Shown here piece by piece: positions 2,667 through 26,614 of a stretch of DNA of 26,614 nt. The stretch covers positions 1 to 26,614 of the IMG/VR virus record IMGVR_UViG_2703719347_000005, one strand, 5' to 3'. The DNA is from a virus (Duplodnaviria; Heunggongvirae; Uroviricota; Caudoviricetes). The stretch's first letter is position 1. Every line of letters begins with the position of its first letter. The notes under the pieces are model-generated. The model ran no database searches, had not been told where the DNA came from, and saw nothing but the letters and a program-made list of their open reading frames with translations. The translations under genes and the position numbers were made by a program.

Positions 2667-3932
2667 CTACTTAACCTGTAACAGGTCGGAGTATCTTGTA
2701 GTATAGCAAGGTGAAAGCATTTCCCGCTTCATCTGCCAGGCCGTTTGGATCCCCTGCCCTGCAAAATACAGCGTTCCCCTTCCGTCTTTCGCATTGAGAT
2801 GGTCGAGTACTTCCATCAGTTTCTCGCTATTCCGCCGTGGCACGTTATCATCAAACAAGTTTAGCTGGGCCACCCCCTGACTGTAGAAATCCCCCAGCAT
2901 CACTCCGGCTTTCTGGTAGCGATACCCGTCTCGCCAGATTGCATCGAGACATTCCGTCGCCGCTGTGATTATGTCCCGACTGTCCTGGGTCGGGGTCAAT
3001 AGTTTCACTGATGCACTATTGCCGTAGTACGGCTCATTCAGAGCAAATGGGCTGGTTTTGACGAATGCAGAGATAAAGCGGCAGTACTGATGCTCACCAC
3101 GGAGTTTCTCCGCGGCACGGGATGCGTATAAGCATATCGCCTGGCGCATCTCTTCGTAGGTGGAAATCCGCTGCCCAAAGCTGCGACTACAGACAATCTC
3201 CTGCTTTACCGGCGCGAACTCCTCAAGACCGAGACATGGCTCTCCGCGTAGCTCCCGCACGGTTCGCTCCAGTACCACATTAAAATGCTTCCGGATAAAA
3301 CGGATATCGGTATCCGCCAGTTGCAGTACAGTTTTAATCCCCATGGCCTCCAGTTTTTTACTGATGCGGCGCCCGACGCCCCAGACCTCATCCACCGGAA
3401 GCAAAGCCATCAACTTCCTCTGTCTTTCCAGGTTCGACAGATCCACCACGCCTCCGGTCTGCCGCTGCCACTGTTTCGCGGCGTGATTGGCCAGCTTCGC
3501 CAGGGTTTTAGTCTGGGCTATGCCGACGCCGACCGTTAGGTGTGTCCTGCGCAGAACCGTCTCGCGAATTTCCCTGCCAAAGTCGGTAAGGTCGCGACAA
3601 TTCCGAACTCCTGTCAGGTCGCAAAATGCCTCATCAATACTGTAAATTTCGCAGCGTGGAGAGAGTTCCTCCAGCGTTGTCATCACTCGGTTGGACATAT
3701 CGGCATAAAGCTCATAGTTGCTGCTAAACGCGATAATACCGTGCCGGCGAAACACGTCCTTTTGCTTGAAATAAGGCTCACCCATTTTGACGAAGGGCTT
3801 CGCTTCTGGCGAGCGGGCGATCACACAGCCGTCGTTGTTTGACAGAACGACCACCGGACGCCCTTTCAGGTCAGGACGAAATACGGTCTCGCACGATGCA
3901 TAAAATGAATTCACATCACAAAGCGCAAACAT
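2667..3932 (-). CDS. umuC: Translesion DNA polymerase V catalytic subunit UmuC (Y-family polymerase)
   Basis: Starts MFALCDVNSFYASCE with the SIDEAFCDLTG catalytic motif, ~421 aa. ATG is at 3930-3932, one nt after the umuD stop. The ORF-track 5' extension to 3992 is rejected. Confidence 0.9.
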   Translation of the reverse strand: MFALCDVNSFYASCETVFRPDLKGRPVVVLSNNDGCVIARSPEAKPFVKMGEPYFKQKDVFRRHGIIAFSSNYELYADMSNRVMTTLEELSPRCEIYSIDEAFCDLTGVRNCRDLTDFGREIRETVLRRTHLTVGVGIAQTKTLAKLANHAAKQWQRQTGGVVDLSNLERQRKLMALLPVDEVWGVGRRISKKLEAMGIKTVLQLADTDIRFIRKHFNVVLERTVRELRGEPCLGLEEFAPVKQEIVCSRSFGQRISTYEEMRQAICLYASRAAEKLRGEHQYCRFISAFVKTSPFALNEPYYGNSASVKLLTPTQDSRDIITAATECLDAIWRDGYRYQKAGVMLGDFYSQGVAQLNLFDDNVPRRNSEKLMEVLDHLNAKDGRGTLYFAGQGIQTAWQMKREMLSPCYTTRYSDLLQVK

Positions 3933-3933
3933 C

Positions 3934-4353
3934 TTAGCCAGCTGATTTAATGATGTACGTAACCACCCCGAACACGTCGAGAGTGTCCTCACTACCGACG
4001 ACTATTGGCGAATATGCAGGGTTCATTGGGTTAAGCTGAACCCGCGGATGCAGTTGCAGCTTCTTAACGGTGAATTCCCCATCCACAGCAGCAATAACGA
4101 TATCGCCATGAACTGCTGTTCTTGAGCTATCCACGACCAGAAGATCACCTTCCCCTATGCCTGCGTCTTTCATGCTGTCGCCGGCGGCTTTGACAAAATA
4201 CGTCGCACTTGGGTGGTTAACGAGCAACTCGTTCAGATCAATACGTTGCTCAACATAATCCTGCGCTGGACTAGGAAAGCCGCACTGCACAAGGTCACTG
4301 TACAACGGGAGCAGCATGATCTGGCGTAACTCAACGGGCGTGTAGAACTGCAT
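3934..4353 (-). CDS. umuD: UmuD, LexA-like self-cleaving accessory subunit of polymerase V
   Basis: 139 aa from ATG 4351-4353 ([13 protein letters not shown]...). Conserved Cys-Gly cleavage site (LVQCGFPSP), Ser (GDSMKD) and Lys (TVKKLQL) present. Confidence 0.9.
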
Positions 4354-4816: not shown

Positions 4817-4934
4817 GAAATATCTGGAAGCTTTAGGCATCTTCTTGGAAGATAGACGAGCGCAAAGACGCACACAGCAATGATGTTATGTAGTATTTTC
4901 CCCTTGAGTGTGCCTGCTCAAGGGGATTTTTTAT
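4817..4934 (+). repeat. Direct repeat copy 1 (~118 bp), homologous to 7965-8079, ending in an intrinsic terminator
   Basis: Shared GAAATATCTGGAA, a 22-bp identical core GCGCAAAGACGCACACAGCAAT (4860-4881 and 8008-8029), and a terminator hairpin with conserved loop. Confidence 0.6.
4900..4934 (+). terminator. Rho-independent terminator (plus strand) overlapping the 3' end of the invertase gene
   Basis: CCCCTTGAG-tgtgcctg-CTCAAGGGG followed by ATTTTTTAT. The minus-strand version has no U-tract, so it is not the invertase terminator. Confidence 0.6.
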
Positions 4935-5487
4935 CGCCGCATTGTACCGGCAAATTTTTGTAAATAGTCTTCACATCTACGCCTATCACATCTGCGATCT
5001 GTTGCCGAGTAGCGCCGTTCTCCAGCATTCTGCGGCACCGCTCCACCACTTCTTCAGTCATTACCCGGCGGCGGCCGCCGACTCTCCCCTGCTCCCTCGC
5101 TGCGGCTAACCCGGCTCGGGTACGCTCCACTATCAGCTCGCGCTCCATTTCTGCCAGGGCGCTCATGACGTGGAAGAAGAATCGCCCTGCTGGCGTCGAA
5201 GTGTCGATCGAGTCGGTAAGGCTGCGGAAATTCACCCCACGCGCCTGCAACTCTGACACGAGCGTAATCAGATCGCGCACGCTGCGGCCCAGCCGATCCA
5301 GTTTCCAGACCACCAGCACATCACCCGGGCGGAGCCGTCGCAGCGCTCGCTTCAAACCTGGCCGCCGGGCATTCTTCCCGCTGGCCATATCCTCGAAAAC
5401 CAGCTCACATTCTGCGCGGATCAGCGCGTTTTTCTGTAAATCGAGGTTTTGATCCCCGGTTGATACCCTCGCATAGCCAATCAGCAC
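4918..5487 (-). CDS. Serine DNA invertase, Gin/Hin/Pin/Cin family
   Basis: MLIGYARVSTGDQNLDLQ...VVWKLDRLGRS...FRSLTDSIDTSTPAGRFFFHVMSALAEMERELIVERT closely matches Gin/Pin over the catalytic domain. GTG start at 5485-5487 with SD AAGGAG 7 nt upstream. C-terminal ~45 aa diverge from what I recall of Gin/Pin. Confidence 0.9.
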   Translation of the reverse strand: MLIGYARVSTGDQNLDLQKNALIRAECELVFEDMASGKNARRPGLKRALRRLRPGDVLVVWKLDRLGRSVRDLITLVSELQARGVNFRSLTDSIDTSTPAGRFFFHVMSALAEMERELIVERTRAGLAAAREQGRVGGRRRVMTEEVVERCRRMLENGATRQQIADVIGVDVKTIYKNLPVQCGDKKSP

Positions 5488-5510: not shown

Positions 5511-5539
5511 ATTGTAAAAAGCCGCGGCCATTCGCTCAA
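5511..5539 (-). promoter_or_regulatory. Putative sigma70 promoter of the invertase gene, -35 overlapping crossover site L
   Basis: On the minus strand: -35 TTGAGC (5539-5534), 17-bp spacer, -10 TACAAT (5516-5511). The -35 hexamer lies inside the left half of the 26-bp site. Confidence 0.3.
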
Positions 5540-5556
5540 ACCCTCGTTTGGGCGAA
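5531..5556. other. gix/hix-like 26-bp recombination site L
   Basis: TTCGCTCAAACC-CT-CGTTTGGGCGAA: two 12-bp half-sites (TTC....AAACC) around a 2-bp core, as in gix/hix/cix. Exact reverse complement occurs at 11080-11105. Confidence 0.65.
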
Positions 5557-5923
5557 GCCTCTTTTTGGAGCAAAAAACATGGCCGAACTTAACCCGCCAC
5601 TGGGCACGACGACGCCGGAAATATTCATGGACAACGTTAAGCGCGCTGACGAGCTGGTTAACGGTCCGGCCGGAACGGTTGACGACCGCGGCGGTGAACC
5701 ACTCGATACCTGGCGCCAGATGATGGCGAAAAACGATGAGGTCAGGCAGAACCTGATCCCGCTCAGTAAGCAATACCAGACGCTGGCAGCGGCGCAGGCG
5801 GATATCGCGAATATTCCGGTGGGGTCGACCACGTATTACCGTAGCCCGGATGACAACGCGTTAGCTGTAGAAGTGATCAATAACGCCGGTACGCTGCAGC
5901 CTACCGGGCGGAAAATGCCATCT
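5531..5923. repeat. Left arm of ~390-bp inverted repeat (site + RBS + first ~115 codons of fibre A)
   Basis: First 48 bp are 100% identical to revcomp of 11058-11105; the next ~345 nt are roughly 85-90% identical by eye to the fibre B 5' end. Confidence 0.85.
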
Positions 5924-7918
5924 TATTCTTCGCTACGCGGGGCGAACATTCTGTTTGATGCTCTGAATGAATATTCAGCAAATGATCCTAAATTCGGTGC
6001 GTGGGACTGGTATCGCGGAGCAGTGATCACCTTCAGCACTACTGATGCCAATATTTCGTTACCGACTCCAGTGGCACAGTATTCCGGCGTATGGTCTGCA
6101 GATAAATATTATGACCTTGCCCGCCTGCCTGTAAGGGTTGGTGATAAGTTAACCTTTTCCGTGCTGGCGTGGTTCCAGGATGCCGGTGCTATGTTCCATA
6201 TTTTCTGGATGTCCACCGCTGGCGCTGTTATTTCGTCTAAATCACAGCTTGCTCTGGCCGCAGGTATAAATACGCCGGTTATCACAGATGTCATTCCATC
6301 CGGCGCATCCTACGTCAGGATCCGGGTTGAAAATACTACGGCAGGGATATTTAAGGTCGGTGCTTATGCTGCTGCGTTGGGGGCTATTCAGCCTGATTTT
6401 GTTCGCGCCACGCCGGATAAAACTTATCTGTCAGCCGTCATATCATCCGGTATTTCGGGGTTAACATCACGCGTCGATGCGCTCCAGGGAGCTATCTCTG
6501 TTGGTTATGCTTATGCAGCTGCCTGGCAAGTCGGGAAATTTATCAACCCAACTACAGGGGCCATCACTGATAACTCTGCGCTGAACTGCGCAATCATTCC
6601 GCATTCCGACGGGGATGGCTGGCTGGTGACAGCCCTTGTGACAGGATCGGCGACTGCTCTGGCCGTGTACATGAACAGCGCCGGGATGGTATTGGGTGTT
6701 GAAGGGCGGGGAACGGCAACCCCGCAGCAGTATACTAATTATCGTCTTAACGTTCCTGCCGGGACAACACAGATCGGTATAACGGGTCGTAATTCTGCGG
6801 AAATTGCTGTTAAAAAACTTGCTGTCGTTGAGACGGCCAAAGTACTGGCATCGATCGATTCTCTGGATGTCAGGGTACAAACAATAGAGGACTCTCTTGT
6901 TTATGATTTTATTAAACACGACGTCACGATTACCTCAGGAGCATATATAAACCGTGCTGATGGCAGTGTGGTGGCAAATGCTGCATTTGACTGTGCAATT
7001 TTTAATTACACAGCAGGAGACCGCTGGAAAGTCACAGCGAGGGTTAACGGCAGTGGAGTTTCGCTCGCGGTGTATATGAACAGTGCCGGGACGGTTATCG
7101 GCACCGAAGGGAACGGTACTACAGAATCGGTGGACTACACCGATTACGAGCTAACACCTCCTTCCGGCACCGCCAAAATCGGGATCACCACCCGTATAGC
7201 CGTCCCCATTATTGCCAAAAAATATGTAGTCGTTCCCGGTGGTAGCACGGTCAGTCCGTGGTCTGGAAAAGTCATCGATGTGATGGGTGACAGCAACGTT
7301 GCTTATAACAAATGGCAACCTCTTGTCGCGGCAGAACTGGGCTGCACTTTTCTGAATCACGGGGTCGGTGGTTCGAAAATAGCCAAACCGGATAGCTCCT
7401 CAACGCAAATCAGCATGTGCGACGATGTGCGAATCAATGCTCTGGATACATCGGCGGCGGCGTGGATTTGCGGTCCGTGGGCAACAAACGACTGGGCGCA
7501 AAATATTCCGATTGGAAGTATCACCGACTCAGTGAATACAACCGTTTACGGCGCGCTGAACATCATCGCTCAGAAACTGCGGGCGCGGGCCCCAACAAAA
7601 CCTATCCTGTGGGCCACGCCGTTCAATGGGGACTATGATTCTCCACGTTCAGCGGCATGGGTTGACGGTGAAACAAATGGCTATGGGCGGGTTTCTGACT
7701 ATGCAGCGGCCATACGCGCCGTGGCGTTGCGATATGGATTCCCCCTAATAGACCTTAACGCTGACTGTGGCTGGACAAAATTCAATAGCACTAGTTTTTT
7801 ATTAACCGAGGGGGATACAAATCCGTCCCGCATCCACCTCAATGCGGACGCGGGGCCTGTGCGTATTTCCTCACTGATAACCGATCGGCTTACTGCCCTA
7901 CAGAAACTGGTGGGCTAG
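5579..7918 (+). CDS. Alternative tail fibre A (779 aa): shared N-terminal anchor, three repeated ~100-aa modules, C-terminal GDSL/SGNH-like esterase domain
   Basis: N-terminus MAELNPPLGTTTPEIF... shared with fibre B for ~115 aa. C-terminal region carries MGDSNVA, HGVGGSK, WATNDW and a late His (SRIH), reading like SGNH hydrolase blocks. Currently antiparallel to the tail operon. Confidence 0.7.
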   Translation: MAELNPPLGTTTPEIFMDNVKRADELVNGPAGTVDDRGGEPLDTWRQMMAKNDEVRQNLIPLSKQYQTLAAAQADIANIPVGSTTYYRSPDDNALAVEVINNAGTLQPTGRKMPSYSSLRGANILFDALNEYSANDPKFGAWDWYRGAVITFSTTDANISLPTPVAQYSGVWSADKYYDLARLPVRVGDKLTFSVLAWFQDAGAMFHIFWMSTAGAVISSKSQLALAAGINTPVITDVIPSGASYVRIRVENTTAGIFKVGAYAAALGAIQPDFVRATPDKTYLSAVISSGISGLTSRVDALQGAISVGYAYAAAWQVGKFINPTTGAITDNSALNCAIIPHSDGDGWLVTALVTGSATALAVYMNSAGMVLGVEGRGTATPQQYTNYRLNVPAGTTQIGITGRNSAEIAVKKLAVVETAKVLASIDSLDVRVQTIEDSLVYDFIKHDVTITSGAYINRADGSVVANAAFDCAIFNYTAGDRWKVTARVNGSGVSLAVYMNSAGTVIGTEGNGTTESVDYTDYELTPPSGTAKIGITTRIAVPIIAKKYVVVPGGSTVSPWSGKVIDVMGDSNVAYNKWQPLVAAELGCTFLNHGVGGSKIAKPDSSSTQISMCDDVRINALDTSAAAWICGPWATNDWAQNIPIGSITDSVNTTVYGALNIIAQKLRARAPTKPILWATPFNGDYDSPRSAAWVDGETNGYGRVSDYAAAIRAVALRYGFPLIDLNADCGWTKFNSTSFLLTEGDTNPSRIHLNADAGPVRISSLITDRLTALQKLVG

Positions 7919-7964
7919 TTAACAGTGCTTATCGCGTAGTAGTGTTTCTAAAATGCTGTAATAA

Positions 7965-8079
7965 GAAATATCTGGAAATGTTTTGAATTATCCAGGAGTA
8001 TATCAACGCGCAAAGACGCACACAGCAATAATGTCATTCATCGCTTTTCCCCCGGCGTGCCTCCGGGGGGATTTTTTAG
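7965..8079 (+). repeat. Direct repeat copy 2 (homolog of 4817-4934) downstream of fibre A
   Basis: See copy 1. Stem sequence differs from copy 1 with compensatory changes (CCCCTTGAG/CTCAAGGGG versus CCCCCGG/CCGGGGG) while the loop (GTGCCT) is conserved. Confidence 0.6.
8049..8079 (+). terminator. Rho-independent terminator downstream of fibre A
   Basis: CCCCCGG-cgtgcct-CCGGGGGG followed by ATTTTTTAG on the plus strand. Confidence 0.6.
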
Positions 8080-8173
8080 TCCTTTATGACGTCGTCTTGT
8101 CCCGTCCTCAGGGAAGCTATAGTGGTCTTATTTCACGTGGTAACTGAAACTGAATACAGTACGAGTCAGCTTA

Positions 8174-8890
8174 TTACGCGATTGATAAAATCCCTTCATA
8201 GCTCTGAGTGACGAGGTCAACCATATCCATTTTTTCAGCCTGAGAGAGTATTCCGCCCGCCCACACCCCTGTCATTGCAATATCCACAGCGCCTAAAAAA
8301 TCTGACGTGATATAGGAGTAGCCAGCATAAATCGACTTATTCGGAACAGGGATTGCGCGGGCGGTAACAGCGACCTGTTCAGTCGATAACAGCTCACTGT
8401 TCGTCATTTTATGAAGCTGAACCATAGAGTTATTCACATCGAGGAAAACCAGATGGAATTTACTGGTGTCCAGTGGAGTCGCGAGGGTGGCGGTTGCTGT
8501 CCCGCTTGACCGCCCCACAATCCCCCTGATTTGAGGAATGGCCGGTTCAAAAACAAACGTATCCCCCTGCGGTTGTACAGCAGAGCCGAGATAGTTACCC
8601 ATGCCCAGCGCTCTGGTAGTGCTTTTAGGCCGGAGTAACACCATCATGGTTTTAACCGGGTTATCCGTGACTTTCAGATCATAACCCCCCGCACCAACAC
8701 CACCCGTAAACCAGTACGTGTTGATGACAGGTGCCCCCACTATGGTTGGCTCTTCCCCAAAAATAGCCCCAAAGTTCTGGCTGCCAAATGTGGCAATGCT
8801 CGCGATAGACGGCTGCGGATAACTCGAACCAATAATACAGTCATCATCCCAGACGGCATCAACATTAATAGATAATCCCTGATTAGACAT
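8174..8890 (-). CDS. Hypothetical protein (238 aa) co-transcribed downstream of fibre B; possible fibre accessory or assembly protein
   Basis: Start ATG 8888-8890 (MSNQGLSINVD...), 7 nt after the fibre B stop, with GAGG SD overlapping that stop. The ORF-track 5' extension to 8989 overlaps fibre B and is rejected. No family recognised. Confidence 0.5.
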   Translation of the reverse strand: MSNQGLSINVDAVWDDDCIIGSSYPQPSIASIATFGSQNFGAIFGEEPTIVGAPVINTYWFTGGVGAGGYDLKVTDNPVKTMMVLLRPKSTTRALGMGNYLGSAVQPQGDTFVFEPAIPQIRGIVGRSSGTATATLATPLDTSKFHLVFLDVNNSMVQLHKMTNSELLSTEQVAVTARAIPVPNKSIYAGYSYITSDFLGAVDIAMTGVWAGGILSQAEKMDMVDLVTQSYEGILSIA

Positions 8891-8897
8891 AAGTACC

Positions 8898-11057
8898 TCA
8901 CAACGTGATTTCAAACATGACGCAATAGTTATCCATACGGATAACCTCGCTATTAAGGGTAAAACTGATAATGTCGCCCTGGCTGTCACGCAGACAACCG
9001 CGCGGCCCGGTCAGGCGACCCGGTGACTGGCCGGTGGTGCCGCCGTGAAAGGCATACTGAAGAATGGCCCCGGCAGGGATATCCGCTGCCGTTGAGACAG
9101 TCACCGCGTCATAACGGATATTGAGGCTGGTCAGCGGGATAATCGCACGTGTGTCAGGGTGCAGTAGCCGGAAACCATAATTACCCGGATCAGAAACAAT
9201 GCTGGTATCAAAGCTCAGCCGACCCACCGGATTCAGCCACACCGTAGCGGCGCGGCCCTGGCGTTGATGACTAACTGGCATCAGTGGTTTTGCCGCTTTG
9301 CCGTCAACCAGCGCCCGCTTTTCCATCACGGAAATATAAAGCCCCTGAATATAGGAACTTCTGGCGGTGAGGTGTGCGCCATCCGTGTAATCGTGAATGT
9401 ACATCGGGTTCGTGAGATAGACATTTTCGCGTGTCTGCGCCAGCTCCAGCAGCGCCATCGGAATGGTGGGATAGGCTGTGTTCGGCGTCCGGTTTATCCA
9501 GCTGCTGAACTGATAAACAAAAATCGGCACATGGACTTCTTCGCCGCACACAGCTGAGGCGTGGGCATCGATCCGCTGTTGCATGGTGTCGAAAATAGCC
9601 TGATAGTCTGCTTTGGTGGTGCCTTTCGTCTGGTCTGCTTCGCCCTGCATCCAGTACATCGCCACAGGCCGGTAGGTTTTCCCGAGCTCCTGAGCGCGGG
9701 CGTAACCATAACTGATATCATCGAAAACTCGCTGAATGTACTTTCCGGGATACGCCGCCAGCACATCAATGGGTTGACCGCCCTCCGCCGGAACAGAACC
9801 CAGAATGATCAGATCATCCGGGTTAAAGCCATAGTTCTCGGCAATCATCAGTTCGTACCAGCCGCGAATGCTGGCCCCCATTGGGGTTTCCCATGCCTGG
9901 CCGTTATCGGTGTTTTTATACGTCTCGACGTAGGGAACCAGCTGAGCATGGTTTTCTGCCGAAGTGCCGGAGCCATCCTGCGCCCGTGCCCCACCGATAA
10001 AACGCAATGCGGTATACAGCGCGGCTATCGTAATCAGGGCCTGAGTATTCACGCCAGCGGCAAGCGATTGTCCGTAACCGATTTTATGGGCAATATCCGG
10101 CAGGCGTGAGTAAATGGACTGATTAAAATAGCGCAGAAATTCAGGGGAAATAATCGCTTTAACTTCCAGAGTTTCGGCTTTCAGCGATTTTACCTCTCCA
10201 TGATTCGCTTCAATTTTCCCCGCAGCAAATGCCCCGTTTTTTTTGATACCCACAGCCGGACGATTTAACGTATCACGCCACGCCATAACGAAATCGCGGA
10301 ATGTCGCAGTAGAAATGCTGGCGTTGGCTGGTAACCCTAAGATACTGGCAATCGTAAGATTGTTGATCTCAGCCTTCCCTGATTTCAGTACCCCTTTTTT
10401 ATTAATGGCAAAACAAAGCCGTTTAAGGGTGTCATAAACTGAAACAGCGTTACCGTCAGCCACTAATGATAAAGCAGAATTCCCGATATTCAGACGTGAT
10501 GACGAGATGATCGACGAAATAAATTCATCCGCTGAGAGCTTTTTTAATTCTGCTTTATTCGCCTTAATCCACCCGGCAAGCAACCGGCCCGCCTCATCCA
10601 GCCCTACCGAATAATTTTTTCGTTCATCCATAAAGGCAAGAGACATACCCGCTGGCGCATTCTGGCTGAACGTTGCTCTGATCAAATCAGTCATGATATT
10701 GACCAGCTCCTGAGATGGCATTTTCCGCCCGGTAGGTTGCAGCGTCCCGCCGTTATTCATGTACTCGTCCGCCAGCGCCCAGACGTCCTGGCTGCGAACA
10801 TAGGTCGTGGAGCCAACGGGGATATTCGCGATATCTGCCTGCGCTGCCGCCTCATTCATATACTGCTTGCTGAGTGGGATCAGGTTCTGCCTGACCTCAT
10901 CGTTTTTCGCCATCATCTGGCGCCAGGTATCGAGCGGTTCACCTGCGCGGTCGTTAATCGTTCCGGCCGGACCGTTCACCAGTTCGTCAGCGCGCTTGAC
11001 GTTATCCAGGAATATTTCAGGCGTCGTCGTTCCCAAAGGCGGGTTAAGTTCGGCCAT
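8898..11057 (-). CDS. Alternative tail fibre B (719 aa): shared N-terminal anchor, SASA-like acetylesterase domain, extra C-terminal domain
   Basis: N-terminal ~115 aa shared with fibre A. Residues ~325-585 carry YGQSLAAG, WMQGEAD and DGAHL, consistent with SASA/DUF303-type SGNH esterases. Colinear with the tail operon, so this is the presumably expressed fibre. Confidence 0.7.
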   Translation of the reverse strand: MAELNPPLGTTTPEIFLDNVKRADELVNGPAGTINDRAGEPLDTWRQMMAKNDEVRQNLIPLSKQYMNEAAAQADIANIPVGSTTYVRSQDVWALADEYMNNGGTLQPTGRKMPSQELVNIMTDLIRATFSQNAPAGMSLAFMDERKNYSVGLDEAGRLLAGWIKANKAELKKLSADEFISSIISSSRLNIGNSALSLVADGNAVSVYDTLKRLCFAINKKGVLKSGKAEINNLTIASILGLPANASISTATFRDFVMAWRDTLNRPAVGIKKNGAFAAGKIEANHGEVKSLKAETLEVKAIISPEFLRYFNQSIYSRLPDIAHKIGYGQSLAAGVNTQALITIAALYTALRFIGGARAQDGSGTSAENHAQLVPYVETYKNTDNGQAWETPMGASIRGWYELMIAENYGFNPDDLIILGSVPAEGGQPIDVLAAYPGKYIQRVFDDISYGYARAQELGKTYRPVAMYWMQGEADQTKGTTKADYQAIFDTMQQRIDAHASAVCGEEVHVPIFVYQFSSWINRTPNTAYPTIPMALLELAQTRENVYLTNPMYIHDYTDGAHLTARSSYIQGLYISVMEKRALVDGKAAKPLMPVSHQRQGRAATVWLNPVGRLSFDTSIVSDPGNYGFRLLHPDTRAIIPLTSLNIRYDAVTVSTAADIPAGAILQYAFHGGTTGQSPGRLTGPRGCLRDSQGDIISFTLNSEVIRMDNYCVMFEITL

Positions 11058-11105
11058 GTTTTTTGCTCCAAAAAGAGGCTTCGCCCAAACGAGGGTTTGA
11101 GCGAA
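10713..11105. repeat. Right arm of ~390-bp inverted repeat (fibre B 5' end + RBS + site R)
   Basis: Reverse complement matches 5531-5923; outermost 48 bp are identical. Confidence 0.85.
11080..11105. other. gix/hix-like 26-bp recombination site R (inverted relative to site L)
   Basis: TTCGCCCAAACG-AG-GGTTTGAGCGAA on the plus strand, the exact reverse complement of site L. Confidence 0.65.
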
Positions 11106-21794: not shown

Positions 21795-22958
21795 TTATGC
21801 ACCAGTGCTGACAGCAATATCACCCGTCACAATCGCTGCCGGGCGATAGTGGGCCAGCGCCAGGCGCTCTTCGCAAAGGATGGTCAGCATGTTTTTAACG
21901 AAGTTATCGCGGTCCTGGTTGCTGATCTCGATGGTGGCATCCATGCGATCCCAAACCTGCGACGCCAGGCCAAACGCGCCAACGGTGAATTTGCCTGCCG
22001 TCTGCGCCGTGGTCGACACCACCGGAAGCCCCCAAAGCACTTTCGAGGCAAACGCCTGCGGGCCACCGAGAATGTAATTGCCGTTAGCGTCCTTCAGCAG
22101 GGCAATACGGTGCCAGTCCGCCGGGTTCAGAATGATGCCGTCTGCTTCGAACTCACTCAGCGATACCTGATAGATGGCGTGTGCCAGAACATCAGCGCCA
22201 GTATCTCCGGTTGCGTTGAGTGTGGTTTCGTAGTCGTTCGCTACTACGTTGAGCCCCTGCAGGTTATCGCCGGTACCGTCCCCGTTCAGCATCTGGTTCT
22301 CTTCCACCAGTGCCAGTCCGTACATCATGCGGGAATTGATGTAAGACTCGAGCGCCGGGGCATCATCCATGATCTGGCGCGATGCCTGGATCCAGTGGGC
22401 GATAGTTTTCACGTTCGCCGTTTCTTTGGTGAAGGTGATATTACTTTCCGGCTTGAGGGTACCTTCTGCCACTGGTGCTGCAGCGTTGGTAAACACGTTT
22501 TCGCGCACGTATTCCAGCGCGTTACTGGTGATACGCCCCTGTGCCAGCAAGTCACGCACAGTCAGACGGCGAAGGCCCGGCATAAGAATACCCGGCAGCT
22601 GCTGCGGCTGGACCAGGGCGCCTGCCGACGCTGCGCCGGAACCAATCGCTTTATCAAAGCTGGTGACTTTCGCTTTGGTACGCGAGCCGTCCCAGCCCTT
22701 CATCAGATCTTCAGATACGCGCTGAGCAAATGACTTCTGCGCAGTCTGATCAGGAGAGTTCCCGGCCAGTTTCTGCTCAAGATCGAACAGGCGGGCACCG
22801 GTGGCTTTCAGTTCTTCCTGTGCTTTCGTCAGATCGGTCTGCATCTGCTTGTTGATTTCACCGGTCTGGTTGATGGATTTACGCTGTTCTTCGATAAGCT
22901 CCTTTACTTCTTTTTGGGAGTTTTCGATAGCTTTTTCCAGTACAGATAATTCAGACAT
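21795..22958 (-). CDS. Major capsid protein, HK97 fold, with N-terminal coiled-coil delta/scaffold domain
   Basis: 387 aa; coiled-coil N-terminal ~100 aa then a capsid body; lies directly after the prohead protease gene. Confidence 0.85.
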   Translation of the reverse strand: MSELSVLEKAIENSQKEVKELIEEQRKSINQTGEINKQMQTDLTKAQEELKATGARLFDLEQKLAGNSPDQTAQKSFAQRVSEDLMKGWDGSRTKAKVTSFDKAIGSGAASAGALVQPQQLPGILMPGLRRLTVRDLLAQGRITSNALEYVRENVFTNAAAPVAEGTLKPESNITFTKETANVKTIAHWIQASRQIMDDAPALESYINSRMMYGLALVEENQMLNGDGTGDNLQGLNVVANDYETTLNATGDTGADVLAHAIYQVSLSEFEADGIILNPADWHRIALLKDANGNYILGGPQAFASKVLWGLPVVSTTAQTAGKFTVGAFGLASQVWDRMDATIEISNQDRDNFVKNMLTILCEERLALAHYRPAAIVTGDIAVSTGA

Positions 22959-22969
22959 GTGTTACTCCG

Positions 22970-23650
22970 TTAAGGTGTCCGCAGGTTAGCGGCAAATGAG
23001 TTAATGCGCTGTGCCAGCGCGTCAATGTCGTCGCTACCGAACTCGCTTCGGCCTGCAGACTTAACACGGGCGATAAATGCCTGTGCTTCAGAACGCGAAA
23101 GCCCGACTGAATCCCTCAGCCAGGCCTCCGCATCGCGAATAGATTTGATACTGTCGATGCTCTTCATAGCCGTTACGCCAGCGAGCTCGTTGGCCGGGAA
23201 AGTACAGACGCTAATTTCCCGCAGGTAAGAGATGTTTTTGAAGATGAGCCCTGACGTGCCAACGGTGTAATCATCAGGCCCAACGGAAAACCCCACTGAC
23301 ATCCCTTCAACCGTGCCATGCTGCATGGCAGCTTTCAGGTCTTCGGCCAGGCTAAGCCCTGGAGTAAGTTGACCACGGACAAATAGCCCCTTGTCATCTT
23401 CATGCATTGCATCCCATTTACCGACCGGGATAGCACGTGTCTGGTGGTTAAAGAACATGGCCACCTTGCGACTCTGGTTAGCAATCACACCAGCGAAAGC
23501 ACCTGGCAAAATAATGTCGCCATCGGCGTCGGTGTTATTAAAAACCGAGGCATACCCTTCAAATGTTCCCTTACTGCCGTCGCCGATGAACTTGATTTCT
23601 GTCTGGTCGAAAGCCAGCGTCTTCTGAATGTCAGGCATCATAGCCCCCAT
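22970..23650 (-). CDS. Prohead protease (HK97 family)
   Basis: 226 aa between portal and capsid genes; GYASVFNNTDADGDIILPGAF-type N-terminal region typical of HK97 prohead proteases. Confidence 0.75.
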   Translation of the reverse strand: MGAMMPDIQKTLAFDQTEIKFIGDGSKGTFEGYASVFNNTDADGDIILPGAFAGVIANQSRKVAMFFNHQTRAIPVGKWDAMHEDDKGLFVRGQLTPGLSLAEDLKAAMQHGTVEGMSVGFSVGPDDYTVGTSGLIFKNISYLREISVCTFPANELAGVTAMKSIDSIKSIRDAEAWLRDSVGLSRSEAQAFIARVKSAGRSEFGSDDIDALAQRINSFAANLRTP

Positions 23651-23655
23651 AAAAA

Positions 23656-24731
23656 TTAAGCCCCGGCATTGCGGGGCTCTTTGTTTGTTCCGAGATCGGT
23701 AATGGGCACGTTCTGCGACTGCCGTGTCGCCACATCACCTCCGGGCAGCGGCGGCAGGTTATCGAGCCTTCGAACCTCGTTAACGGTCCGAATCCCGGTA
23801 TTGACCATGATTTGCATAAATGATGCCCGGCTTGTTGAATCACCGCGCAACAGCCCGTCGAGGTTATGCTCGGCGTGAATGATGCCCTGTTCTGACTCTT
23901 TGACCAGCCAGCGCTCAATGCTGTACTCCCACCGATCAAGGTAGGGTTTGAGGGTATACTGGAGAAAGCCTAGGTTTTGCTGTTCAATCCCCGATCCCCA
24001 GGAGGTGGTTTTGTCCACATCGCCGACCAGATGTGGAGGCACGCCGTAAAATCGCGCCAGTTCGGCGACCTGAAATTTACGCGCAGACAGAATTTCTGAA
24101 TCCTGAGGCGAAACGCCGATAGGTTGCGTGGTGAAGCCGCTCTCAAGGATCCAAAGCCGCTTTTTGACCGGGCCACCAGCAATCTCCTTAAAGTTTTCCT
24201 CCAACTGCCCGCGCTGCTCTTTCGTCAGCACCTTGCCGTCAGTCATCAGGATCTGCGGAGACTTCGCACCATTGGCGAAAAATTCACGCTGGTTATCTTC
24301 CATCGCTATGGCCACACCAGCAGACTTCGCACTGAACGCCAACGGCGAAAGACCAGTCAGCCCATTGAAGCCAAACCCTTTGAGATGAAAAATTTCTTTC
24401 TGTGAAAAGTCGGCGTATTCAGTGTCCCGTCGGTAGCGATAGATAATATTTTTACCGTTATCGCTGAGCCGAACTTCCATATTGGCGCTCATCAGTGGAA
24501 CCATGCTAATCACGTCACCAACACTGTTTCGCTCAACATGTGCATAGGCGTTGCCGTAGGCACATAGTTGCATAGTCATTGCTTCGCGAAACTCAAGAGC
24601 GGTCATGAAGTTGTTGGGACGGAATCTCAGCAGCTTCGCCAGGGGGTGACTGTTGTCCACTTTCGTGCGCTGATCATTTTTGGTCTGATAAACATCGAGT
24701 GGTAAAGATGCTGTTACGGTGGAGATTAACC
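23656..24731 (-). pseudogene. Portal protein gene, 5'-truncated by IS66-family insertion
   Basis: Portal-like sequence begins at ...RLISTVTASLPLDVY. The first ~30 codons of the track ORF (24732-24822) are IS-derived. About 358 codons remain, short of a typical ~400-420 aa portal. Confidence 0.7.
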
Positions 24732-24812
24732 GTAAGCGTCGTCTCAGCACCGTCTGGCAGATCCTGAAATTCCTGAGAGAATAGTGGACACCAAATATGG
24801 TGGACGCAATCC

Positions 24813-25217
24813 ATGAAATCATTAACCGCAGTGCGTAAAAAAAGCCCTAATTATCCCGTTGAGTTCAAAATCAAAATGGTTGAACTCTCGCATCGACCAG
24901 AGATCTCCGTAGCGCAACTCGCTCGTGAGCATGGGATCAACGATAATTTGCTGTTCAAGTGGCGCCAGTACTGGCGCGAAGGAAAACTACGTCCTCCTTC
25001 AACAACAGAAAACAACGTGCCTGAGCTGCTCCCGATAACACTTGATGCCGAAGATGTTGTCCCTACAACCTCCCCCCGGTCACAACCTGTAGCTGCTGCG
25101 ACACCTGAATCACTCAATATCAGCTGTGAAGTGACGTTCCGGCACGGATCACTCCGTCTGAATGGTGCCATCAGCGAAAATATCCTGAACCTGCTGATAC
25201 GGGAGCTCAAACGTTGA
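24813..25217 (+). CDS. tnpA: IS66-family accessory protein TnpA (orf1)
   Basis: 134-aa ORF with a helix-turn-helix-like region (ISVAQLAREHGINDNLLFKWRQ); stop overlaps the next ORF start. True start may be the internal MVELSH. Confidence 0.75.
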   Translation: MKSLTAVRKKSPNYPVEFKIKMVELSHRPEISVAQLAREHGINDNLLFKWRQYWREGKLRPPSTTENNVPELLPITLDAEDVVPTTSPRSQPVAAATPESLNISCEVTFRHGSLRLNGAISENILNLLIRELKR

Positions 25218-25561
25218 TCCCATTACCATCAGGGACAAAGATCTGGCTGGTCGCTGGCATCACCGATATGAGAAACGGCTTCAACGGCCTGGCGGCAAAG
25301 GTGCAGACGACGCTGAAAGACGATCCGATGTCAGGTCACGTTTTTATCTTCCGTGGGCGTAATGGCAGTCAGGTAAAGCTCCTCTGGTCTACCGGCGATG
25401 GACTGTGTCTGCTGACCAAACGGCTGGAGCGCGGCCGCTTCGCCTGGCCGTCAGCCCGGGATGGCAAAGTGTTCCTCACACCGGCACAGCTGGCGATGCT
25501 GCTGGAAGGTATCGACTGGCGGCAGCCTAAAAGACTGCTTACGTCCCTGACTATGTTGTAA
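25214..25561 (+). CDS. tnpB: IS66-family Orf2 (TnpB)
   Basis: MIPLPSGTKIWLVAGITDMRNGFNGLAAKV... is the conserved IS66 orf2 signature; TTG start overlapping the tnpA stop. Confidence 0.8.
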   Translation: MIPLPSGTKIWLVAGITDMRNGFNGLAAKVQTTLKDDPMSGHVFIFRGRNGSQVKLLWSTGDGLCLLTKRLERGRFAWPSARDGKVFLTPAQLAMLLEGIDWRQPKRLLTSLTML

Positions 25562-25609
25562 GCCTCTTTATCCTAGTCGACGCTGAATGAGCCTGGTAAT
25601 ATACCCGGT

Positions 25610-26614
25610 ATGAGCAGCTCACTTCCTGACGATATCAATGCACTGAAACGTCTCCTTGCCGAACAGGAGGCGCTGAACCGTGCCCTGCAGGAAAAGCTGA
25701 ACGAGCGTGAACGCGAAATAGACCATCTGCAGGCACAGCTGGATAAGCTGCGCCGGATGAACTTCGGCAGCCGCTCGGAAAAAGTCTCCCGTCGTATCGC
25801 ACAGATGGAAGCTGACCTGAAGGCACTTCAGAAAGAAAGTGATACCCTTACCGGTCGGGTTGACGACCCGGCCGTGCAGCGCCCGCTGCGTCAAACCCGC
25901 ACCCGCAAACCGTTCCCCGAATCACTCCCCCGCGATGAAAAACGGCTGCTGCCGGCAGCGTCATGCTGCCCGGAATGTGGAGGCTCGCTGAGCTATCTGG
26001 GTGAGGATGCCGCTGAACAGCTGGAGCTGATGCGCAGCGCCTTCCGGGTTATCCGGACTGTACGTGAAAAGCATGCCTGTACTCAGTGCGATGCCATCGT
26101 GCAGGCCCCCGCGCCTTCACGGCCCATCGAGCGGGGTATCGCAGGACCGGGGCTGCTGGCCCGCGTGCTGATCTCAAAGTATGCAGAGCACACCCCGCTG
26201 TACCGCCAGTCTGAAATGTACGGCCGCCAGGGCGTGGAGCTGAGTCGTTCACTGCTGTCGGGCTGGGTGGATGCATGCTGCCGGCTACTGTCACCGCTGG
26301 AAGAAGCGCTTCAGGACTATGTGCTGACTGACGGTAAGCTCCATGCTGATGACACGCCTGTCCCGGTGCTGTTGCCAGGCAATAAGAAAACGAAGACCGG
26401 GCGGTTATGGACCTACGTTCGTGACGACCGTAACGCCGGGTCAACGCTGGCGCCGGCGGTGTGGTTCGCTTACAGCCCGGACAGAAAAGGCATCCATCCG
26501 CAGACCCATCTTGCGGGGTTCAGTGGTGTACTGCAGGCGGATGCATACGCCGGGTTCAACGAGCTGTACCGGGATGGCCGGATAACGGAAGCCGCCTGTT
26601 GGGCTCACGCCCGC
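25610..26614 (+). CDS. tnpC: IS66-family transposase TnpC (partial, continues beyond window end)
   Basis: Starts ATG 25610 (MSSSLPDDINALKRLL...); leucine-zipper-like N-terminus, CPECGG...CTQC zinc-finger pairs, LHADDT. Open to the window end, so absent from the ORF track. Confidence 0.9.
   Translation, partial: MSSSLPDDINALKRLLAEQEALNRALQEKLNEREREIDHLQAQLDKLRRMNFGSRSEKVSRRIAQMEADLKALQKESDTLTGRVDDPAVQRPLRQTRTRKPFPESLPRDEKRLLPAASCCPECGGSLSYLGEDAAEQLELMRSAFRVIRTVREKHACTQCDAIVQAPAPSRPIERGIAGPGLLARVLISKYAEHTPLYRQSEMYGRQGVELSRSLLSGWVDACCRLLSPLEEALQDYVLTDGKLHADDTPVPVLLPGNKKTKTGRLWTYVRDDRNAGSTLAPAVWFAYSPDRKGIHPQTHLAGFSGVLQADAYAGFNELYRDGRITEAACWAHAR

Follow-up and report, generated by a model that had tools for sequence, protein, structure and literature searches.

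Disruption of prophage genes by insertion sequences (IS) is commonplace, and the portal dodecamer, the target in the case described here, is required both for the packaging of DNA and for the joining of tails. In phage HK97 the portal is ordered over residues 32-398 (PMC10359639), and in a second study the first 50 residues were not visible (PMC10275583). The inserted element, ISEc22, is an insertion sequence of Enterobacteriaceae, catalogued as a member of the IS66 family with a length of 2454 bp (PMC5001619). An uninterrupted relative of our locus is present in E. coli MRSN346595, where the portal gene measures 1278 nt, encodes 425 aa and starts after a gap of 2 nt from the stop of the large terminase gene. 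This intact portal matches the HK97 portal structures (8cez/8fql) end to end, over residues 2-425, with an E value of 9.5e-211. Klebsiella phage KpF5, from hospital wastewater, also has a portal of 425 aa, in which 3 of 425 residues differ and the N-terminal 67 aa are identical; with a portal this close, the uninterrupted module is therefore that of a phage isolated from an environmental source.

We propose a model for the locus that most reasonably fits these relatives and the records described below, namely that a single transposition of ISEc22 split the portal gene of an icd-integrated HK97-like prophage from which no infectious particles are to be expected, and we hold this reading with high confidence. 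In this model ISEc22 (2454-2455 bp) would have jumped into the portal gene at codon 68, with duplication of the 8-bp target GATTAACC, and left the gene in two pieces lying about 2.46 kb apart. The 5′ stub would consist of codons 1-67 followed by 11 codons that run into the target duplication and the right end of the IS, giving a product of 78 aa, and the 3′ piece would retain 358 codons, deprived of their own start and of the close spacing behind the terminase gene. The split locus would no longer provide a full-length portal, leaving the prophage unable to form infectious particles. The features on which the model is built lie at the right-hand end of the window, by which we mean the whole stretch of 26,614 nucleotides that was analysed:

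23656 to 24731, minus strand: HK97-type portal gene, 3′ portion, covering nt 203-1278 of 1278 and encoding R68/L69 through A425, with the stop codon
24724 to 24731, no strand assigned: target site GATTAACC, left copy of the 8-bp duplication, formed by the 8 native bases that adjoin the IS
24732 to 24822, minus strand: leader that the chimeric ORF takes from the IS, 30 codons beginning at ATG 24822
24732 to 26614, plus strand: ISEc22 (IS66 family, 2454-2455 bp when complete), its left 1883 nt, ending with the window and contig
24813 to 25217, plus strand: ISEc22 tnpA, 134 aa, Pfam HTH_Tnp_1; identical copies are annotated as IS66-like accessory protein TnpA
25214 to 25561, plus strand: ISEc22 tnpB, 115 aa, Pfam TnpB_IS66, E 1.6e-38
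25610 to 26614, plus strand: ISEc22 tnpC (DDE transposase), codons 1-335 of 512, with LZ_Tnp_IS66, zf-IS66 and DDE_Tnp_IS66

The native part of the portal gene is without a single mismatch over 1076 nt when window positions 23656-24731 are set against the intact 1278-nt gene of MRSN346595 (L001, 8757-10034), the counterpart of the remnant being 8757-9832 at 100% identity. On the minus strand it forms part of an ORF of 388 codons (23656-24822) that bears the Phage_portal domain (PF04860, E 7.9e-92, model positions 4-321 of 321) and belongs to that family with 308.3 bits against a gathering cut-off of 39.1. The first-pass annotation had reported that portal sequence directly abuts an IS end beginning GTAAGCG at 24732 and that the apparent N-terminus is read from IS sequence. 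Both observations hold, as the portal/protease DNA matches to 12 E. coli chromosomes and to Klebsiella phages KpF5, KPP5665-2 and ST16-OXA48phi5.3 all stop at 24731, and the ORF takes its first 30 codons from the antisense strand of the IS. Codon 31 spans the junction and reads CGG here, in place of AGG (codon 68) in the intact gene, both encoding Arg by chance, and the native portal residues of the chimeric ORF begin at R68/L69. The same annotation had put the loss at roughly 40-60 residues together with the native start; the native start is indeed absent, and the gap is larger than estimated, at 202 nt or 67 N-terminal codons, so that the window locus does not hold a complete CDS of about 425 aa. 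No native in-frame start lies in the remnant ahead of GTG 24660 (codon 92) or ATG 24606 (M110). An exact protein look-up with the 388-aa ORF as a whole gave no match, and testing alternative starts identified GTG 24750 as the start used by RefSeq, giving WP_252322534.1, a 364-aa 'phage portal protein'.

Downstream of the portal on the minus strand, the S78 prohead protease gene (22970-23650) and the gene for the HK97-fold major capsid protein (21795-22958) follow, and the remaining structural genes of the window are all intact. Precisely between the portal stop and the protease start, at 23658-23679, a GC-rich hairpin of 8 pairs is followed by a T-run on both strands, suggesting an intergenic structure native to the head operon; overall, terminator-like hairpins did not exceed chance (5 against 2.9 +/- 1.6).

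The 1.9 kb to the right of the junction is 99.5-99.9% identical to annotated ISEc22 ('IS66-like element ISEc22 family transposase') by megablast against complete E. coli genomes, where matches to ISEc22 run to thousands of records, and it differs from one complete copy (L014) at 2 of 1883 nt. The boundary of the element was defined by aligning the window with 11 complete ISEc22 copies at unrelated loci. The left end at 24732 reads GTAAGCGTCGTC, and all 11 of these independent copies open with GTAAGCGTCGTC behind unrelated flanks, starting with GTAAGCG and ending with CGCTTAC as terminal inverted repeats, the first of which is present at the left end in the window. A boundary placed 4-14 bases upstream of 24732, where BLAST extensions reach, was rejected; the matches run 4-14 bases past the IS end because the target sites resemble each other, the extensions being similar GATTAA-like targets and not IS. 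That IS66-type tnpA, tnpB and tnpC follow the junction had been recognised from the sequence, and Pfam identifies all three. These genes are oriented opposite to the phage late operon. Only the left 77% of ISEc22 is found within the window, the right end of this copy lying beyond it, and tnpC is accordingly cut by the window end, its DDE_Tnp_IS66 match covering model positions 1-157 of 284.

Among the 11 complete copies, nine are flanked by perfect 8-bp target duplications, one by a duplication of 7 bp (where grxB is split), and one has unrelated flanks (L020). The duplications are alike, reading AGATTAAC, AGATGAAC, TGTTAACC, AGAACAAC, GATTAAAT, GATTTATT and GATTACG, with GATTAACC in the window (loci L012-L014 and L017-L024), and comparison of the 12 insertions suggests that ISEc22 prefers GATTAA-like 8-mers as targets. 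The portal-IS junction itself is absent by megablast from all complete E. coli RefSeq genomes, exact scans of genome, viral and metagenome contig collections with the 31-nt junction gave no match, and the prophages among the matches listed for the capsid protein were either uninterrupted or interrupted in another way.

The first-pass annotation had also concluded that the IS replaced the 5′ end of the portal gene, and here our reading departs from it. WP_252322534.1 is found on a single contig, LIVG01000009.1 (147,553 bp), of the draft, short-read E. coli assembly GCA_001420055.1. Over the final 12,959 bases of the window the sequence agrees without a difference with the end of this contig, which has 1 further base. 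The portal 5′ end therefore looks 'gone' because the draft assembly breaks inside the IS. A TnpC cut at 335 aa is on record from 26 different contigs (KQJ25020.1 and others), and short-read assemblies evidently often break at this same point of ISEc22, the reason probably being that other copies or remnants share its last ~570 bp. We modelled a simple insertion on the portal strand as portal nt 1-202, followed by GGTTAATC (the duplicated target) and then by the right end of ISEc22 in reverse complement, which yields a 78-aa ORF, MADTDYSIDL...STVWACIRLIVSVQQEPY. This predicted fusion peptide, MADTD...WACIRLIVSVQQEPY, is an exact match to KQJ18733.1 / WP_057077936.1, a 'hypothetical protein [Escherichia coli]' carried by one contig of 31,005 bp, whereas the model without duplication yields a different peptide ending ...WACISKRAARTVL. 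The annotation had itself suggested looking beyond the IS for its right end, an 8-bp duplication and the displaced 5′ part. For the copy in the window the 8-bp target-site duplication is therefore seen indirectly, through the 78-aa product on record, which requires a right copy of GATTAACC, and we infer that this right copy is present. The existence of an exact 78-aa product that includes the duplication argues for plain transposition, with the 5′ piece displaced by about 2.46 kb and not deleted. With the window stopping 1 base before the contig end and the reciprocal junction on record, replacement of the portal 5′ end finds no support.

The accession numbers bear on where the reciprocal junction lies. 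WP_057077936 differs by 3 from WP_057077933 and is not far from WP_057077864/865, which the same prophage encodes. KQJ18733 shares its prefix with KQJ25020, probably the number of the cut TnpC on the contig of the window, and the two are 6287 apart, more than the proteins of one genome. The 78-aa protein may therefore have been annotated in a clonal sister assembly of the same submission batch and not in the window's own. We infer that the reciprocal junction is present in the same genome as the window, and the event would be the same either way, because ISEc22 is very unlikely to have entered at this one base twice, independently and with the same orientation.

The gap between these accessions is also what leaves room for an IS-mediated deletion or rearrangement, in which ISEc22 truly replaced the 5′ end of the portal gene, and perhaps the terminase and early region too, with the left part absent or elsewhere. 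The window displays one junction only, the 78-aa protein could by its number come from a sister isolate, and the unrelated flanks of L020, one of the 11 sampled copies, indicate that rearrangements do occur. We nevertheless regard such a deletion as unlikely, as E. coli has the exact reciprocal product, duplication of 8 bp included, encoded on a single contig, which would otherwise demand a repeat of the insertion at the identical base and orientation, the end of the contig fully accounts for the sequence that is missing, and simple insertions make up 10 of the 11 ISEc22 copies. A chimeric join in the assembly, with the portal intact in the real genome, could be suspected of a short-read draft whose contig terminates inside the IS. 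The join, however, coincides to the base with the start of the IS terminal repeat, and the complementary junction, with its matching duplication, is independently on record; a random mis-join would yield neither, and we consider an artefact hardly credible. A single, simple insertion of ISEc22 is thus the reading that we carry forward.

The consequence for virion production follows from what the truncation removes. Since residues 32-398 of the HK97 portal are ordered, the truncation takes away the flexible tail together with the ordered residues 32-67, so that the conserved helix ISTVWACIRLIST loses its first half. Some of what is lost may not be needed, judging by the disorder of the first 31-50 residues in HK97. 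Across 66 residues that align with HK97, the N-terminal segment removed here shows 56% identity, and it is therefore a conserved segment and not a free linker. The portal ORF is split by the IS, the essentiality of the gene being taken from established phage biology; with no intact portal for packaging and tails, no infectious particles are expected and the prophage is very probably defective for virion production. The relative in MRSN346595 encodes a Q-type antiterminator (PF06530), and read-through by Q antitermination could still allow expression of the head and tail genes that lie downstream.

Such read-through is one of the points that would favour a prophage that is still productive, in which late transcripts cross the IS and a chimeric or truncated portal (IS leader plus residues 68-425) is expressed from the late promoter and assembles, or in which another resident HK97-like prophage complements the defect. 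The truncated ORF retains Phage_portal positions 4-321 of 321, and in HK97 the portal is disordered from residue 1 to 31-50 (PMC10359639, PMC10275583). Against this, the deletion takes residues 32-67, which are ordered, and with them half of the first helix that is conserved (PMC10359639), the N-terminal 66 aligned residues are conserved with HK97, and the truncated ORF is preceded by no convincing ribosome-binding site. ATG 24822 has no recognisable Shine-Dalgarno sequence and GTG 24750 has a distant AGGA only, no sigma-70-like promoter was found on either strand between 23500 and 26614, and no outward-facing promoter able to drive the truncated portal was found in the IS end. Continued production of particles is, in our judgement, very improbable.

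Apart from the IS, the prophage is closely preserved. The window corresponds base for base to the prophage of MRSN346595, with the exception of one inversion. Besides the portal, the window encodes 20 prophage proteins, the protease through to umuC, each with 100% identity to its counterpart in the uninterrupted prophage, and the same holds for the flanking iraM and ycgX. The integration site is icd. In the MRSN346595 relative the prophage spans from the integrase to an icd' remnant, and an icd-like remnant in the window (~1531-1696) shares 84% identity with the icd copy that MRSN346595 has at the other end of the prophage. Genes umuD/umuC (translesion polymerase V) are carried as cargo and adjoin the invertase (window about 2670-4353). 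The inverted segment, 5531-11105 (5.6 kb), is 100% identical to MRSN346595 in the opposite orientation and is bordered by imperfect inverted repeats of ~393 bp, the outer 26 bp of which read TTCGCTCAAACCCTCGTTTGGGCGAA at 5531-5556 and, as the reverse complement, at 11080-11105, and resemble hix/gix crossover sites. A gene for a 189-aa 'recombinase family protein' (4921-5487, minus strand) adjoins the segment. The inversion sets behind the TipJ gene either a 779-aa SGNH/GDSL tail protein (5579-7915, plus strand) or a pair of 719 aa and 238 aa (11057-8177, minus strand). This segment looks like a tail-fibre host-range switch of the Gin/Hin/Pin type that swaps whole genes, including their start codons.

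Knockout of a prophage morphogenesis gene by ISEc22 is an ordinary and already known kind of prophage decay, and the importance of this case is small beyond annotation hygiene. WP_252322534.1 (364 aa) and WP_057077936.1 (78 aa) are the halves of one IS-split gene, each with IS-derived residues, and both are already in RefSeq, unrecognised as one gene. Gene ends that appear to be 'missing' at the ends of draft contigs inside an IS should not be taken as deletions. The prophage of this strain is best scored as probably non-inducible to infectious particles, which is relevant only to work on phage release or transduction in the lineage.

Other copies of the same prophage have been struck by IS as well. 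Strain Ec42 carries IS150 between the portal and protease genes (L007, 7895-9264) and has a portal ORF lengthened to 437 aa, strain 5CRE51 carries ISKpn26 within the protease gene (L010, 8767-9747), and PRO_A-1370 has a further IS150 somewhere in the region. It could be speculated that the independent hits on head genes (here, in Ec42 and in 5CRE51, in related clinical E. coli) reflect selection that locks in a useful, potentially lethal prophage, or that a truncated portal acts as a dominant-negative decoy against incoming HK97-like phages, but we give this idea very little credence. Our locus shares with the prophages of Ec42 and 5CRE51 an IS in the head module of an otherwise complete lambdoid/HK97-like prophage and differs in the IS and in its target, each event being specific to its strain. 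The copy of ISEc22 conforms to the catalogued element in its GTAAGCG end, its tnpA-tnpB-tnpC order and its 8-bp target duplication, and only its location differs. Compared with KpF5, KPP5665-2 and ST16-OXA48phi5.3, where the portals are of 425 aa, the native part of the portal gene is ~98.9% identical in DNA. Finally, the order of terminase, portal, S78 protease and capsid is common to our locus, to the module of the HK97 gp3 portal and to those of the Klebsiella phage portals, whereas here the portal gene is split after codon 67 and an IS leader replaces its native start.
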